DNA of 64,000 nucleotides from a virus (IMGVR_UViG_3300012020_000003:46556-110555); one strand, 5' to 3'; counted from the first letter of the stretch, positions 52,196-57,851 are shown. The notes: generated from the sequence alone by a model not told the origin. Translations and numbers: made by a program.

Positions 52196-53228
52196 GGATT
52201 TCGATTTTTGTGAAGGCTGTATTTAGCCATTGATCCGGATCCTTAATTTGTAGGTGGAGTCTGTCTTCTACCAACATTTTTCTAAATTTTAATCGATTTA
52301 ATCGGGTCACACCGCCTTCTAATGAATCGTGTATTTTTAATTTGGCTTCACCGCTTATATCAACATCGTCTAATTGCATTAATCTAAAATTCAAATTAAT
52401 TTTATCTTCTGAATCTACGATTGTTTTGAAAATTTTCTTTTTTGATTTGTTGTCAACTTCAATTTTAGATTTTAGTAATAAATCATCGACAGTAAATTCA
52501 GTATTAACCAATTCCGGGAAAGTCTTAATAAGTGTTGCTAGACCTACTCCTTTAACTCCAGGTATATCGTCTGATGTATCTCCATCTAGTGTCCTATAGG
52601 TTATCATGTTTTCAGGAATTATTCCAAACCGTTCTTTTATTCCATTGACATCATATAGTTTTTTTTGAACTGGATTATATACATTTACATGCTCTGTAAT
52701 TAATTGAAAGAAATCCTTATCAGATGATACGATCACCGATTTGTGACTGGCGCACTTATTTTTAATTATCCAAGCAATGGTATCATCGGCCTCAACACCC
52801 GAAATCGAAAGAACATAAATCGGCAGAATATTTAGATATTCAATTATTCGTCGAAACTGTTTAATCATCGATTGTTGTTCATCTTCTAAATTTTTAAATT
52901 CGTCGAATCGGTTAAACGTTTTAATTTTTGTAGAACGGCCTGCTTTATATCCCGGAAATAATTTCTTTCTACGAGCCGAACCGCCTTTTTCGTCAAATAT
53001 AATAATTGCTCGTGTTGGCTGGAATTGACTTATAAGAAACCGAAGTGATCTAAGAAACCCTAGCAATCCACCCACATGTTCACCGTTATCATTTAACGCT
53101 GGAACGGCTGTGAACACCCGTATAAACATATTGGTACCATCGATCAGGAGAGTTTTTTCACCCCCCTGATCTGATACTCTGTCGTTGACTATGGTGTTAT
53201 AAAGATCCTTAAGATTAGTCTTGGTCAT
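52170..53228 (-). CDS. 5'-3' exonuclease / flap endonuclease (T4 RNase H-like)
   Basis: LIDG.N, YKAGR, EADD, SSDKDF and GD.SD.IPGVKGVG motifs. Confidence 0.92.
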   Translation of the reverse strand: MTKTNLKDLYNTIVNDRVSDQGGEKTLLIDGTNMFIRVFTAVPALNDNGEHVGGLLGFLRSLRFLISQFQPTRAIIIFDEKGGSARRKKLFPGYKAGRSTKIKTFNRFDEFKNLEDEQQSMIKQFRRIIEYLNILPIYVLSISGVEADDTIAWIIKNKCASHKSVIVSSDKDFFQLITEHVNVYNPVQKKLYDVNGIKERFGIIPENMITYRTLDGDTSDDIPGVKGVGLATLIKTFPELVNTEFTVDDLLLKSKIEVDNKSKKKIFKTIVDSEDKINLNFRLMQLDDVDISGEAKLKIHDSLEGGVTRLNRLKFRKMLVEDRLHLQIKDPDQWLNTAFTKIEIHAANRLNQ

Positions 53229-54519
53229 CTTCGTCTATTTCAATATCGTCAATGCCATAATCATCACCATTTTTGTATGTCATTATATACTGATCGCAGA
53301 CTTGATTATATATATGATCTTTCAGTTCTGGATTACGCATCATGATGCCTTTAAATTCCCTAGATTGAAATTTTAATTCATTAAGTTTAGCTATAGCTCC
53401 TTCAGAATCCACAATGTCCATTTCTGGAAAATTAAGTGTGTAATATGCGCCTGCCTGTCTAATTAATGAAAATTCTTTAAGGGTCGTTAACCAAGACCCA
53501 TAATTATCTACACCAGATTCATAGAATATATCAAACTTAACTTGTTTCAACGGTGGACCTAAACGGTTCTTAAAGACCTTTGCTGATGTCTTTATTCCCA
53601 CCACATTATCTACCCCATTAACTTTCTTTTTGATCTTTCCTTCGCTGGTTAATCTAATTCTAATGGTGGCGTGAAATCCTATGGCTTTACCACCTGACGT
53701 TACCCATTTTTCGGCCCCAAATCCCATTGCTCCAACATTTGCTCGTAACTGATTAGTAAATATTAAGAGAATATTTCTAGAACCTAACATCCTAGTAATT
53801 TTTCTCATGCCTTTACTCAGTATCAAGGCTTTCTGTGTAGCATATCCGTCTTTATCATATCCGGCTGCCGCTTCTATTTTTGTGGTGGTTGCCATTACGG
53901 AATCGACTACAATTGTAACCGGGATTGTTTTATCCGCGGTCCTCACTTGAACTATTATCTTTTCAATTGCCTCAAACACATCTTCGATATGATTTAATGG
54001 CACGTACATTAATTTAGAATTGTCAATCCCAATTGCCTGCATATACTCAACCGATACTGCATTCTCAGTGTCTATAAAGACAGCAATTCCACCTTGTTTT
54101 TGTGTATCCTTTAGAGCATATGCTGCTAGCAAAGATTTGCCCGTGTTGTGATTCATGAAACCATTTCCATAATAACAATGTTCGGGATGATCGACAGTTA
54201 CATCTACAATTTCTCCGAATCCAATATAATTTATAGATTTAATTTTTGAATATCCCAATTCAGTTAAAAGTAGATGTTTAGATATAATTAAATCTTGTGT
54301 CATCACCCAGCCTGAATTAGACAAAAATTTATGTTCTGCTGATACTATGATTTTAAATCCATTCTCAGTTTCAACTTCATAACTCTTTAAATTTCCCTTT
54401 TTGACATAGTCGGTGATTTGTGCATAGTTTTCATCTAACGTTTTAACTTCTACCCTTTTACCTTCGGAAAGTAAACGTTCAACTTCCGAAATTGGTATTT
54501 CCTTTTCTATGTATTTCAT
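53215..54519 (-). CDS. recA: RecA/UvsX C-terminal part fused to a 125-aa C-intein
   Basis: Hint blocks SAEH (B), VDVTV (F) and HN|T (G), then TGKS, FIDTE, VVDSV, NQLR and GGKA of RecA. Confidence 0.93.
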   Translation of the reverse strand: MKYIEKEIPISEVERLLSEGKRVEVKTLDENYAQITDYVKKGNLKSYEVETENGFKIIVSAEHKFLSNSGWVMTQDLIISKHLLLTELGYSKIKSINYIGFGEIVDVTVDHPEHCYYGNGFMNHNTGKSLLAAYALKDTQKQGGIAVFIDTENAVSVEYMQAIGIDNSKLMYVPLNHIEDVFEAIEKIIVQVRTADKTIPVTIVVDSVMATTTKIEAAAGYDKDGYATQKALILSKGMRKITRMLGSRNILLIFTNQLRANVGAMGFGAEKWVTSGGKAIGFHATIRIRLTSEGKIKKKVNGVDNVVGIKTSAKVFKNRLGPPLKQVKFDIFYESGVDNYGSWLTTLKEFSLIRQAGAYYTLNFPEMDIVDSEGAIAKLNELKFQSREFKGIMMRNPELKDHIYNQVCDQYIMTYKNGDDYGIDDIEIDEDDQD

Positions 54520-55817
54520 TTAATGTTTTTTGATAATCTGTTAATTTGTGTATCGTTCATAATGATATTACCGTTTTTTATTTCATTTAAAATGTATTCT
54601 AACTTAATCTCCGATAAATCGTATGTTTCATATGTAATATATGCAGCATTAAGATTAATTTTTTTAGCGTAATCTGTTAGAGCATTAAATTTAAGTTGGT
54701 TTATAGGTTGTTTAATTAAAGCACTTGGTTTAATTTCATAAATACATTCACCAATTACAATGTCCGGATGATAATTTTTCAGTTTTTCATCCTTAAAATA
54801 TTGAATTTTATGTTTTGATAAACAAAAAATGATGTTATTTTTAACCAAATACAAATAAACTCTTAACTCCAATGAACTTCGAAAATGTACCATTTCACCA
54901 AATGCATGTAAATGCCCCTTTATTCCAATACCTGCGTTTTTTGACGGTTCTTTACCAAACATTTTATTAAATTCTCCAGGTAAAAATCTTGATGGATTTT
55001 TTCTAAGTACACCGTAGCTGCCTTGTAATGCAGCCCAAGTATTGGGTCCGACAGTGCCAAATTTTTTGAAAAAATCTGACCTTGCTTCTGAATCTACAAT
55101 GTCCGTTCTGACGTATTTATAATATGCATTTTTCATCTTGCGAGTTAACGGATGTCTAATAATTGTTGTACCGCGAACTTTATTCGCGCCTGCAATTGAT
55201 GCGTTAATTCGATTTATTCGTTGTTTTTCCTTTGAATTGGCATCTACAATTGCTGTTAAATCTAATCTTTTTATGATGTCATGCAAATTATACAATGTTA
55301 TTCCATATTTAGAACATAATTCACCGTATATCATTCCAGATTTAACATCTAAACACAATTCATCTTTATAAGTGTATTCAAAATCATTTAAATATTGGAT
55401 TCGCTTAAGATAGAATGCATTGCGTATGTTTTGTTTTTTAAATTCTTGATTAGCAGCTTTCAATTTTCGTGTTAACCCCAAACCATCAACTATTTTATTA
55501 ACCTGACGTCTAGTTATGTCCAAAATCTTAGATATTCGTAAAGAACCACATGCCTTATTATTAAGTAACAATGTTACATTAGTGCCATAATTAAGTATAT
55601 CTTTTCTTCGAGTTTTTAAAAATTGAAGATTCAAAAGTTTAAGATTTTTGTTTGTATGAGCTATGGTGTTAGCTATAATCAAATCTCTTAAATTTGAATC
55701 TTCAATTTTATGTTTTAATGAACCTTTTCTTAATTTTAGAACGTTTTCTATATAAGATGTCCATTTCCCTTCAATTGCTAATTGTTTAACAATTGATATT
55801 TCACAATCAGTAAGCAT
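54516..55817 (-). CDS. Free-standing putative homing endonuclease (HTH/NUMOD3-like region plus TnsA-like PD-(D/E)XK domain)
   Basis: NKMFGK, FRSSLE, YHPD and EIKP motifs; very basic; sits between the split recA halves. Confidence 0.75.
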   Translation of the reverse strand: MLTDCEISIVKQLAIEGKWTSYIENVLKLRKGSLKHKIEDSNLRDLIIANTIAHTNKNLKLLNLQFLKTRRKDILNYGTNVTLLLNNKACGSLRISKILDITRRQVNKIVDGLGLTRKLKAANQEFKKQNIRNAFYLKRIQYLNDFEYTYKDELCLDVKSGMIYGELCSKYGITLYNLHDIIKRLDLTAIVDANSKEKQRINRINASIAGANKVRGTTIIRHPLTRKMKNAYYKYVRTDIVDSEARSDFFKKFGTVGPNTWAALQGSYGVLRKNPSRFLPGEFNKMFGKEPSKNAGIGIKGHLHAFGEMVHFRSSLELRVYLYLVKNNIIFCLSKHKIQYFKDEKLKNYHPDIVIGECIYEIKPSALIKQPINQLKFNALTDYAKKINLNAAYITYETYDLSEIKLEYILNEIKNGNIIMNDTQINRLSKNIK

Positions 55818-55823
55818 GCTTTT

Positions 55824-55853
55824 CCCGTCTATTTTTTAATAAATAGTTACGGG
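55824..55853 (-). promoter_or_regulatory. Hairpin over the endonuclease leader containing a putative late-promoter motif
   Basis: CCCGT-AA-CTATTT-ATTAAA-AAATAG-ACGGG ends 6 nt before the ATG; TAACTATTTAT also lies upstream of ORF 47358. Confidence 0.55.
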
Positions 55854-55859
55854 CTACAT

Positions 55860-56168
55860 TTAATCGTATATCCTAACCTTAATTAAAGTATTCGGATGGA
55901 CACATCCTTCAAGACCGGTGATTTCTACGATTCTACCAACCGGATATCCACCGCCTTTTTTATTGGCCATCGCAATATCTAATATATCAAGTCCTGACGA
56001 AACATAATCGGTTACCTTAGCAAATAACGTTGGGTCATCCAAAAAGTAGGATGCGCTTTCGCCACCGAGTTCTTTAGCAAAAGACTTGTTCAAGTCAGTT
56101 ATTAAGGAACCGATAATGTTATGCACGTCAGGGCTTTCGATTTTTGTAATCGTTTTTCCCTTAGCCAT
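55860..56168 (-). CDS. recA: RecA/UvsX N-terminal part fused to a 14-aa N-intein
   Basis: SSG..ILDIA..GGYPVGRIVEITGLEG followed by intein block A CVHPNTLIKVRIYD and a stop. Confidence 0.92.
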   Translation of the reverse strand: MAKGKTITKIESPDVHNIIGSLITDLNKSFAKELGGESASYFLDDPTLFAKVTDYVSSGLDILDIAMANKKGGGYPVGRIVEITGLEGCVHPNTLIKVRIYD

Positions 56169-56180
56169 TTAATTTAATTT

Positions 56181-56978
56181 TTATTTAAACATGTTTGCAA
56201 ATTCATCGTCTAAATCAGTTAAATTTGTTGATTTAGGAGCTGATGTTGCTGTTTTAGTAACCTGCGAAGCTGTAGATGTTGTTGTAGTTTGGTCGGTATC
56301 ATCTTCTTCTAAGACTGTATCAGTTGAACTTTCTTTTGGACCTTCTAAGAATATCTGTAATTTCCTGTCGAGTTCTTCGTAAGTCATAGTCTTAAATAAC
56401 GTTTTGACATCTGGCATTTCTTTGATCATTTCCAGCACTTCTTTAGAGTCAGTGACTTTAGATGTCGCCATTTTTGGCCGCAACGTAATTGTTGGATAAG
56501 CATCTGCACCAGCGGCTGGAGTATAATCTACACTGAAGTCTCTACCTGATTTTAAATCTGTGAAGTCTCCGAAATCTTCTTCGTTAGCAAATTTTAACAA
56601 TGCTTCATAAATAGTCTTTGAAAATCCCCAGAATTTAACGCCTTCGGTTTCTTCGCCTCTAACTAGGATTGGCGCGAACCATCTTGTAGTTGAATGAATC
56701 TTTCGGCTTGCTAAGAAGTCTTCTCTGTCGCCAGTCGATTTAAGTTTGTCTGCAAATTCGTTAATTGGGTCAGGCTTTCCAAAACTATTTGGAGATAATA
56801 CAGAACCATTAGTAATGTCATAATGGAATTGTAATTCTGTGATTGGCCATTCTGGATCGTATGCGTACGGTAAAAAACGAATGACTTGTGTGTTCTTTTT
56901 TGGTCTCCAGATGCTGTTTGAGCCCTGACTACCACCTTTAAGAGAATCTAACTTCTCTTGAATTAGTTTTAAATTCAT
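56181..56978 (-). CDS. Single-stranded DNA-binding protein (gp32-like)
   Basis: IRFLP, DPI.E, GVKFWGF, D...GRD motifs; acidic C-terminus DLDDEFANMFK. Confidence 0.85.
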   Translation of the reverse strand: MNLKLIQEKLDSLKGGSQGSNSIWRPKKNTQVIRFLPYAYDPEWPITELQFHYDITNGSVLSPNSFGKPDPINEFADKLKSTGDREDFLASRKIHSTTRWFAPILVRGEETEGVKFWGFSKTIYEALLKFANEEDFGDFTDLKSGRDFSVDYTPAAGADAYPTITLRPKMATSKVTDSKEVLEMIKEMPDVKTLFKTMTYEELDRKLQIFLEGPKESSTDTVLEEDDTDQTTTTSTASQVTKTATSAPKSTNLTDLDDEFANMFK

Positions 56979-57074
56979 AAGTGTTAAAATGTGTTTTAAG
57001 TAATAAAAATGTTTATGTGTGTAATTGTTATGTAATATACAAAAAATTATTCAATTATCCAAATTATTTGTCAA

Positions 57075-57851
57075 TTATTTTAAATTAAATATTAAATTAT
57101 TTATTTGATCTTGCCTCTTGTCAGCTCTGTTTAAATATGATTTGATTTTATTTCCAAAATTTTGCAAAGTAGTAAATATTCTATCGAAAATTCCTTCGTT
57201 TAACGTCAATGATTCTCCAACATTAACGGAGAGTCGCCTTTTAGCCCCAGCCTTTACTACGTCAGCTGATGCAATTACCGATGCTTCTTTAATTAATCCA
57301 TCAATTGTAGTTTTTAAATCAGCATTTTGTGCCAATAATAATTCCACGACCTTCTGATAATCAGTAGAAATTATATCTCCAGCTTTTGTAATTACTTTGT
57401 CTTGGTTTGTCTCAGTTAATTTACTTAATGTAAAGGAACTATTAAGACATTCGACAGTTAAAGTCATTGCCTTTTCACCATCATCAAATATATCAACTAC
57501 TTTTTCACGAATTTTATTATGTAATTCTTCTTCTTGGGCAGCGACTTGATTTTTCAGCTCGTTTAATTCGCGTTTCTTTTCTTCAAATAGTGATACTGAT
57601 TTATCCAATGCTTGCCAAGACTTGGCCAATGATGTAAAGGCAGCTGCCTTTTGGGCAGAAACTGTTGCAATAACTTTATCCTTTTTAACTTCATATGAAG
57701 CATAAGTATTATCTCTGGCTTCAACTATATAATCATTTACATTTTCAGTTTTTAATGTATGATTAATTGTTGCAATTATTTTATTATAATCTGGAGATTG
57801 TCCTGGATATAATAAATGTATATTCTCTGCTATTTTATCTATTAATTTCAT
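57075..57851 (-). CDS. Coiled-coil hypothetical protein, possibly virion-associated
   Basis: Long heptad runs; LNEGIFD motif. Confidence 0.55.
   Translation of the reverse strand: MKLIDKIAENIHLLYPGQSPDYNKIIATINHTLKTENVNDYIVEARDNTYASYEVKKDKVIATVSAQKAAAFTSLAKSWQALDKSVSLFEEKKRELNELKNQVAAQEEELHNKIREKVVDIFDDGEKAMTLTVECLNSSFTLSKLTETNQDKVITKAGDIISTDYQKVVELLLAQNADLKTTIDGLIKEASVIASADVVKAGAKRRLSVNVGESLTLNEGIFDRIFTTLQNFGNKIKSYLNRADKRQDQINNLIFNLK

Follow-up and report, generated by a model that had tools for sequence, protein, structure and literature searches.

The 64,000-nucleotide (nt) window analyzed here (IMGVR_UViG_3300012020_000003:46556-110555), which derives from an IMG/VR virus record of 110,555 bp with an estimated completeness of 59%, contains a phage recA gene that is fractured inside its Walker A motif. 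We consider it probable, at roughly 80%, that the interruption is a functional trans-splicing split intein which, together with a nuclease gene, forms a cassette that spreads by homing. The locus consists of three open reading frames (ORFs) on the minus strand. The first (55860-56168; 102 amino acids, aa) ends with GRIVEITGLEG, the 14-residue N-terminal intein fragment (IntN) CVHPNTLIKVRIYD and a stop codon; the second (54516-55817) encodes 433 aa and begins 42 nt past that stop; and the third (53215-54519; 434 aa) opens with the 125 residues of the C-terminal intein fragment (IntC), followed by TGKSLLA and the RecA core. The IntC signatures present in the window are SAEH (block B), VDVTV (block F) and a terminal HN. 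An earlier note on this DNA had described the two recA halves, the 14-aa IntN, the 125-aa intein start, the nuclease gene between them, the 42-nt distance and the ATGA overlap; all of these were confirmed base for base, and the observed anatomy is far beyond chance. The window locus is an intact VidaL-type intein, split at the position designated S1, within a fractured recA; loci of this kind number at least 20, the window included.

In the proposed mechanism, the Walker A coding sequence is interrupted after Gly88 and before Thr+1 by a mobile cassette of 1,760 nt (54145-55904). The cassette would represent a class-1 mini-intein gene that was cut after its second beta-strand (S1) by a free-standing homing-endonuclease gene, so that two polypeptides are produced, i.e., RecA(1-88) joined to the 14-aa IntN, and the 125-aa IntC joined to RecA(89-397). 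IntN would dock into IntC as a beta-hairpin, completing the HINT fold, and Cys1, the block B His, the block F Asp, the terminal His-Asn and Thr+1 would then perform protein trans-splicing, so that RecA would be made whole again, its P-loop reading GLEGTGKS. The most likely substrate of the nuclease is recA without the cassette, cut close to the codons of the P-loop, and repair of the break would copy the cassette in, which constitutes homing. Both the stop codon that ends the first half and, by way of ATGA, the start codon of the second belong to the cassette itself.

The interrupted site in the host recombinase

Pfam analysis matched RecA positions 28-63 weakly on the 102-aa ORF (E 0.0047) and positions 61-261 on the 434-aa ORF (E 3.3e-37), and both halves were assigned to UvsX-like recombinase by PHROG. 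The window N-extein aligns with the N-termini of the intein-free homologues P0007 and P0008 (395 aa), which read GRIVEITGLEGSGKSLLAAY and contain the P-loop GLEGSGKS. Relative to E. coli RecA, the break falls between the two serines of GPES/SGKT, inside Walker A. Uninterrupted relatives read GLEGSGKS or GLEGTGKS at exactly that point, which bears out the proposal that recA is fractured within this motif.

A scan of metagenomes with an extein pattern that is blind to the intein recovered 39 loci, 33 of which contain an uninterrupted G-x4-GK[ST], including 13 with the exact GLEGTGKS; the rest comprise one variant (SSQESAGKS), one split locus (L067) and four that do not cover the site. Since GLEGTGKS occurs uninterrupted in relatives, the predicted splice product of the window, GLEG-TGKS, would correspond to a natural P-loop. 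The suggestion that trans-splicing would restore this motif therefore agrees with both the 13 of 39 relatives and the empty-site allele described below. In this metagenome scan, for which P0007 served as the query, the 39 loci were all relatives with identities of 27-48%, and distant-mode blastn of the locus against GenBank phages returned no match.

Relationship to VidaL and to other split inteins

The Pfam family Intein_splicing was detected on residues 19-84 of the 434-aa ORF (E 2.3e-7). The window carries a catalytic set that consists of Cys1 directly after GLEG, the block B His (motif SAEH, IntC residues 60-63), the block F Asp, the terminal His-Asn and Thr+1. When compared to solved inteins, the window IntC matched gp41-1 (1e-6) and VidaL (PDB 6vgv; 1.1e-6), and the contiguous relative P0002 matched VidaL over the entire domain (E 7.9e-9). 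A profile of the family matched Spl DnaX (1.7e-14), gp41-1 (1.3e-12) and VidaL (6.3e-11); Spl DnaX and gp41-1 thus score higher over the core, while VidaL alone gave an alignment that starts at the first residues of IntC and continues through the extein. Residues 8-14 of the window IntN align with residues 8-14 of the VidaL intein (6vgv), and IntC residue 5 aligns with residue 23 of the 6vgv chain, assuming that the crystallised chain is a direct IntN-IntC fusion. The window IntC begins no more than one or two residues away from the junction in VidaL. This alignment places the window split at the S1 position of VidaL, after beta-strand 2.

The window intein resembles VidaL (PDB 6vgv/6vgw) in being a class-1 mini-intein with an S1 split and similarity across the whole IntC. 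Both contain an HP.H.YYG.G block, and the crystallised chain ends in SHA followed by SGK, a P-loop C-extein as in the RecA family. The two differ in that the IntN of VidaL has 16 aa, while the 14 residues of the window correspond to those of VidaL minus the last two and relatives have 13; in addition, the similarity is modest and the window carries Thr+1. Judged by sequence, the window intein is a relative of VidaL and no new type. The VidaL inteins were reportedly named after a T4-like helicase and UvsX. The earlier description of an atypically split intein thus held for the 14-aa/125-aa split, with the qualification that this is a relative of VidaL having the same split site and an SGK extein.

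VidaL is reported to splice with a half-life of ~1 min, and natural atypically split inteins to have an IntN of 15-37 aa, the S1 split being represented by VidaL (16 aa) and PolB16 OarG (15 aa) and the S2 split by AceL TerL (25 aa) and GOS TerL (PMC13014065). A 15-aa IntN is named as the shortest characterized to date in a second paper (PMC10189870). The window IntN (14 aa) is shorter than any that we found characterized, and an IntN of 13 aa is the norm in the aligned family. PolB16 OarG is similar to the window intein in its natural S1 split, very short IntN (15 aa) and metagenomic origin, but it is cysteine-less (Ser1), resides in a PolB host and has a dispensable block B His (PMC10189870). 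The window intein, in contrast, is predicted to depend on Cys1 and has a conserved block B His.

The arrangement of the locus is comparable to the fractured genes reported in 2009 by Dassa et al. for eight enzyme types with split inteins and GIY-YIG or Vsr-like endonucleases, with no RecA/UvsX host among them (PMC2677866). The shared features are two host ORFs on one strand that carry an intein half each with an endonuclease ORF between (as in our 17 nuclease-bearing loci), hairpins upstream of the endonuclease gene, overlapping frames, a phage DNA-metabolism context and a nuclease-free variant of the same locus (PMC2677866). The differences are that the inteins described there (gp41-1, NrdJ-1, IMPDH-1) are split at the canonical endonuclease site, having a long IntN and a short IntC, whereas the window is split at S1; that their endonucleases are GIY-YIG or Vsr-like, whereas that of the window is similar to TnsA and T7 endonuclease I; and that UvsX is mentioned there only as a neighbour of fractured genes (PMC2677866). 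Full-text literature searches, whose coverage did not extend to the primary VidaL/TerL papers and their supplements, returned no description of a split intein in the P-loop of RecA/UvsX and none of a TnsA-like homing endonuclease within an intein.

A family of split recA loci

When IMG/VR was scanned with alignments of IntC and of the nuclease, 35 loci were recovered, whereas the C-fragment alone as the query against IMG/VR had returned no relative. Eight were dropped as repeats or near-identical contigs (L010, L020, L023, L025, L028, L029, L032 and L033). Twenty distinct loci are split at the same RecA site, including the window and the metagenome locus L067 (19 besides the window). IntN is 13 aa long in 13 of the 20 loci, 14 aa in six (the window, L002, L004, L006, L018 and L026) and 15 aa in L034. 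The window was therefore rightly placed among the shortest natural N-inteins in that its 14 aa fall below the published 15-16 aa, even though the majority of these public loci are shorter still. Cys1 is kept in all 20 IntN fragments, and H63, D106, H124 and N125 are invariant in all 20 IntC fragments. The Thr nucleophile that had been emphasized for the window is present as stated, but it is ordinary within the family, where the +1 residue is Thr in 9/20 loci and Ser in 11/20. The IntC of the relatives comprises ~121-125 aa and is 40-56% identical to that of the window.

A nuclease gene lies between the halves in 17 of the 20 loci. The remaining three, L006, L008 and L067, are split without a nuclease and have spacers of 138, 21 and 97 nt (L006:1163-1302, L008:3976-3998 and L067:4273-4371), and L010, a near-identical repeat of L008 outside the 20, is likewise split without a nuclease. 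By eye, the spacer of L006 includes TTGACA and TATAAT spaced by 17 nt, a perfect promoter that precedes its IntC half.

Contiguous alleles, for which the earlier note had recommended a metagenome search, were found in P0002 and L005. The contiguous-intein allele P0002 (531 aa) reads GLEG, then CVHPDTLVKVKLSEIEKEIPIS through NHN, followed by SGKS, and its exteins are 98% identical to P0008; L005 is contiguous at the Walker A intein site. The protein search also revealed four relatives that begin with IntC (P0003-P0006). A second N-fragment, P0017, has the same 14-residue IntN as the window on an N-extein with 53% identity.

Some members of the family depart from the common pattern. L027, L028 and L029 (4335-4346) have TAKS in place of TGKS after the intein, so that the Walker A Gly is replaced, and in L018 (3777-5068) the C-extein is distributed over two ORFs with a break near residue 163. 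It is possible that these four are decaying members of the family.

Empty site, mobility and selection

Among sequencing runs searched with words sampled from the locus (52800-56600), one contained all of them (share 1.00) and 14 DNA runs contained 20-35%. The latter are wastewater, freshwater, bioreactor, sludge and sediment metagenomes. Contigs were compared over 52800-56600 for the DNA runs X2, X3 and X6 (three studies; 2020, 2021 and 2024) and the RNA run X18. X2, X3 and X6 each yielded one contig with flanks at least 99% identical to the window; in X2, the two flanks comprised 1,318 nt with 1 difference and 696 nt with 0 differences. All three contigs skip 54118-55904 and have the same 27 other letters in its place. 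On the N side, the identity extends to base 55905, the end of the last N-extein codon. The 27-letter tract, read by hand on the gene strand, encodes TGKSLLAAY; 10 of its 27 bases differ from the window, and all of the differences are synonymous. The net difference of 1,760 nt corresponds exactly to IntN, spacer, nuclease gene and IntC.

These contigs indicate that near-identical phages carry an uninterrupted recA (GLEG-TGKS) and that the cassette is a discrete insertion; the empty-site allele also explains the partial word share of X2, X3 and X6. Presence/absence polymorphism at one precise site thus exists among near-identical phages. The recoded 27-nt tract is confined to one side of the insertion point. 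As read from the sequence, the one-sided tract is compatible with co-conversion from a diverged donor or with selection for an uncuttable target, and it suggests a cleavage site within ~27 nt downstream of the insertion point.

To assess selection, substitution rates were compared between relatives. The ratio of nonsynonymous to synonymous rates (dN/dS) of IntC was 0.02-0.42 in 22 pairs with at least 60% identity, these ratios being rough because dS exceeded 1 (saturated) in most pairs; the unsaturated pair L019/L021 had a dN of 0.003 and a dS of 0.22. For the nuclease, dN/dS was 0.14-0.35 in four pairs, and a fifth pair was saturated. Such values indicate that both the intein and the nuclease parts are under purifying selection. 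Furthermore, conservation of IntC exceeded that of the C-extein in 169 of 190 pairs, with means of 53% and 43%. Taken with P0017, this suggests that the intein moves between diverged recA genes, although a stronger constraint on the intein could contribute.

The nuclease inside the intein gene

The 433-aa protein encoded between the recA halves had been called TnsA-like. In the Pfam analysis of the window protein, Phage_endo_I was matched at E 1.7e-4, with a score of 21.7 bits that is under the cut-off of 29.1, and Tn7_TnsA-like_N was not matched at E<=0.1; PHROG assigned the protein to phrog_15427, an endonuclease. An exhaustive HMMER search revealed 254 representative homologues at E<=1e-3, 22 of them reaching 1e-30. 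The window protein was aligned with 44 of the 150 matches listed, which were picked because they are complete or almost complete. In these 45 nucleases, D352 and K363 are invariant and E317, P351 and E361 are conserved in at least 90%, so the active-site pattern predicted from the alignment is E...PD...ExK. Pfam searches of the 45 proteins (E<=0.01) detected Phage_endo_I in 36, Tn7_TnsA-like_N in 24 and NUMOD3 in three, along with assorted helix-turn-helix (HTH) families.

An AlphaFold2 (AF2) model of the nuclease, with a predicted local distance difference test (pLDDT) score of 93.1 and a predicted template modelling score (pTM) of 0.47, contains HTH modules on long helices followed by an alpha/beta domain. 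The best Foldseek matches of this model were to TnsA (E 3.8e-3). VIA-align gave Z scores of 9.2 (root-mean-square deviation 3.5 A, 135 aligned residues, model residues 278-419) and 9.1 for TnsA, the next match having 5.5, and Z scores of 5.0 for I-Bth0305I and 4.3 for Vsr. A profile of the nuclease family matched T7 endonuclease I at E 1.6e-6, with the RSsLE...Y.PD motifs aligned, while the window sequence alone had no match in the PDB at E<=10. The description as TnsA-like is consequently appropriate at the level of the fold and of the Pfam matches to relatives, and it does not extend to orthology, the window protein itself lying under the Pfam cut-off. We therefore class the window nuclease as sharing the fold of TnsA and endonuclease I, and not as an orthologue of either.

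The resemblance to TnsA and T7 endonuclease I concerns the fold of residues 278-420 and the conserved E...D...ExK residues. In contrast to those enzymes, the window nuclease has an N-terminal 270 aa of HTH repeats, and its gene is located inside an intein gene and shows a homing-endonuclease-like polymorphism. TnsB/TnsC partners or transposon ends were not seen at the window locus, and by context the nuclease is neither a transposase subunit nor a junction resolvase. With I-Bth0305I and the Vsr-like (EDxHD) enzymes of recA introns and fractured genes (PMC3239194; PMC2677866), it has in common a C-terminal domain of the restriction-endonuclease fold, a modular organization and, probably, a phage recA target. 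It differs from them in that the match is far weaker than that to TnsA and in having E/D/ExK instead of the Vsr-type His. A Vsr-like type (DUF559) does occur in the recA family, but at a second site (L024).

The nuclease motif was found in 21 viral loci, in 19 of them between recA halves and in two elsewhere (L035 and L036). In L036 (788-4004), a 310-aa relative of the nuclease (Tn7_TnsA-like_N, 32.2 bits, above the cut-off) lies between two NrdD ORFs that carry positions 14-414 and 415-562 of the NrdD profile, with no intein; L035 is alike. The ORF that follows the NrdD parts in L036 was read by eye as NrdG-like. That a related nuclease gene splits nrdD is what one would expect if these enzymes act as homing endonucleases.

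Assembly of the halves and expression signals

The association of the two halves was modelled with IntC residues 1-140 and residues 60-102 of the N-fragment. The predicted complex reached an interaction score from predicted aligned errors (ipSAE) of 0.83 (0.83, 0.81 and 0.83 in individual runs) compared to 0.12 for the best control. Of 78 solved complexes, 51 attained this mark, as did 2 of 108 mismatched pairs. Contact agreement was at least 82%, and the pLDDT of the partner was 56-57. The predicted interface involves residues 86-102 of the N-fragment, i.e., the whole IntN and three extein residues, and on the IntC side residues 1-11, 21-26, 57-64 (block B), 102-106 (block F) and 116-125 (block G). 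In the model, the halves fit together like an intein; splicing is beyond what the prediction shows.

The 42-nt spacer is predicted to fold into a hairpin with a minimum free energy of -12.5 kcal/mol (z -2.23; 4 of 200 shuffles were as stable), the outer stem of which extends to the nuclease AUG. Co-located hairpins of -10 to -20 kcal/mol are present in L016, L017, L021 and L027, and weak or absent in the others. Translational coupling of the nuclease and IntC-RecA is plausible. By eye, ~9 of 16 loci contain the heptamer TATTTAT in the spacer that precedes the nuclease gene, and the nuclease-free L067 contains it as well; it may be due to chance in A+T-rich DNA, or it could be a promoter element that travels with the nuclease gene. 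Scans for sigma-70 promoters and terminators over 53000-57200 revealed no excess over shuffled sequences (19 promoter-like sites compared to 19.8 expected).

Alternative explanations

Several results weigh against a functional cassette that spreads by homing. The Intein_splicing match scored 31.2 bits, under the curated cut-off of 35.8. The high score of the predicted complex may reflect likeness to solved inteins, VidaL included, and the saturation of dS limits the selection analysis as indicated above. The 4-nt ATGA overlap of nuclease stop and IntC start is present in only 10 of the 17 nuclease-bearing loci, the others having overlaps of 10-40 nt or a 9-nt gap. The RNA contigs of X18 span 53351-53593, 55968-56141 and 56271-56600, i.e., parts of the exteins and not the junction. 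Across the family, no codon signature that could define the nuclease target set P-loop sites with a cassette apart from those without one. Finally, the full cassette was found in the single probable source run only, with 20-35% of the words in the 14 other DNA runs, so the cassette-bearing allele may be rare or recent among these phages, and the gene might then have been broken only recently.

A recA that was recently invaded, in which insertion of the nuclease killed both the intein and the recombinase, would fit this distribution, as would the near-identical phages with an empty site in 3/3 of the other DNA runs compared, and the broken C-extein of L018 and the TAKS motif of L027-L029 show that some members of the family may be decaying. 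We regard a non-functional gene as unlikely, because the three ORFs of the window are intact with every catalytic residue present, and the same split has been kept under purifying selection in 20 diverged loci, three of which retain both halves in the absence of a nuclease. Another possibility is that the two chains of RecA are held together by the intein pieces without splicing, or that the intein halves serve as a dimerisation module only. There is precedent in a fragmented phage ribonucleotide reductase that is reportedly assembled by interaction domains without splicing (PMC3045599). The relative of the nuclease that splits nrdD does so without any intein, and the predicted IntN-IntC interface would suit association as well as splicing. 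Arguing for splicing, the residues required for the chemistry (Cys1, block B His, block F Asp, His-Asn, Ser/Thr+1) are invariant or nearly so across 20 diverged loci, and a 139-aa HINT domain in the P-loop would be expected, from knowledge of RecA structures, to block ATP binding. The related VidaL is reported to splice (PMC13014065). Association without splicing therefore seems to us quite improbable.

Joining at the RNA level, by intron splicing or ribosomal bypass, would make the intein signals irrelevant. The recA genes of Bacillus phages are known to contain group I introns that have endonuclease genes (PMC2677866; PMC3239194). At the window locus, however, the interval is coding sequence except for the 42-nt spacer, and the nuclease and IntC genes overlap by 4 nt, which leaves no space for a self-splicing intron, as had been argued earlier. 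An Rfam scan of 53000-56400 detected no intron family at E<=1, the sole match being a frameshift element with 18.4 bits compared to a gathering score of 70. Moreover, both flanks encode matched intein halves under selection, and joining of the RNA is very improbable. A trans-splicing split intein with a homing nuclease is the explanation that we prefer.

Origin of the split and significance

A broader scenario can be put forward tentatively, with slightly less than even odds. The S1 split of the whole lineage may have been created and spread by free-standing homing endonucleases similar to TnsA and T7 endonuclease I, of which our literature searches returned no description and which inserted after beta-strand 2 of a contiguous P-loop mini-intein and not at the canonical site. 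With its own stop codon, hairpin and ATGA restart, the insertion would have the second RecA half translated in step with the nuclease, and the resulting pairs would include the shortest natural functional IntN known (13-14 aa), diverged and possibly orthogonal to one another.

Short IntN fragments are accessible by peptide synthesis. In published work, 15-16 aa is named as the natural minimum, and shorter or better IntN are wanted (PMC10189870; PMC13014065). The window and its 19 relatives provide natural pairs of 13-15-aa IntN and ~121-125-aa IntC that are candidate tools for semisynthesis. In addition, a complete natural series exists at one site, comprising the empty site, the contiguous intein, the nuclease-split intein and the split intein after nuclease loss. 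This allele series and the base-exact empty site make both the origin of the atypical split site and the nuclease target directly testable. The supply of the phage recombinase would depend on two polypeptides that meet and splice. At the level of the family, the useful additions are the allele series, the base-exact empty site and a nuclease family for which we found no description.

Locus layout and genomic context

Table 1. Features of the fractured recA locus, in window coordinates
Feature	Position	Strand	Remarks
N-extein	55905..56168	(-)	RecA residues 1-88; ends GRIVEITGLEG, the first half of Walker A
IntN, 14 codons CVHPNTLIKVRIYD + stop	55860..55904	(-)	Cys1 codon 55902-55904; stop codon 55860-55862
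Spacer, 42 nt	55818..55859	(-)	From IntN stop to nuclease start; hairpin, inner stem ~55824-55853
Free-standing endonuclease gene, 433 aa	54516..55817	(-)	HTH repeats ~1-270; PD-(D/E)XK domain ~278-420
IntC, 125 codons, MKYIEKEIPISEVE... to ...GNGFMNHN	54145..54519	(-)	ATG overlaps nuclease TGA (ATGA)
C-extein, 309 aa + stop	53215..54144	(-)	Thr+1, GKS of Walker A, RecA core and C-terminal domain
Recoded tract, C-extein codons 1-9 (TGKSLLAAY), 27 nt	54118..54144	(-)	Differs from empty-site allele

The cassette has a G+C content of 29.0%, compared to 37.7% for the exteins and 32.8% for the whole window. Genes neighbouring recA encode a gp32-like single-stranded DNA-binding protein (SSB), a 5'-3' exonuclease and a DnaB-like helicase, which together with recA constitute a phage replication/recombination module. 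Among solved structures, the contiguous relative P0002 matched bacterial RecA at ~1e-32 and phage UvsX at 1.7e-12. The recombinase is closer to bacterial RecA than to UvsX, yet its neighbours are of the T4 type (gp32-like SSB, RNase H-like exonuclease and gp41-like helicase).

Some recA genes contain a second intein with a very short IntN, located before T(S/T)GGKA (L024:4860-6789, L005:4800-6834 and L016:4269-6017). At this second site in L024 and L005, the C-extein ORF ends in FGDK(Y/W) followed by a 15-aa tail that starts with CVDPFTT and a stop codon; an ORF of 355-389 aa comes next, and then an ORF that opens with ~125 aa ending in NHN directly before T. The second-site ORF of L024 belongs to DUF559, a Vsr-like family (Pfam, E 1.4e-6). 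In L016, the second-site intein is contiguous.

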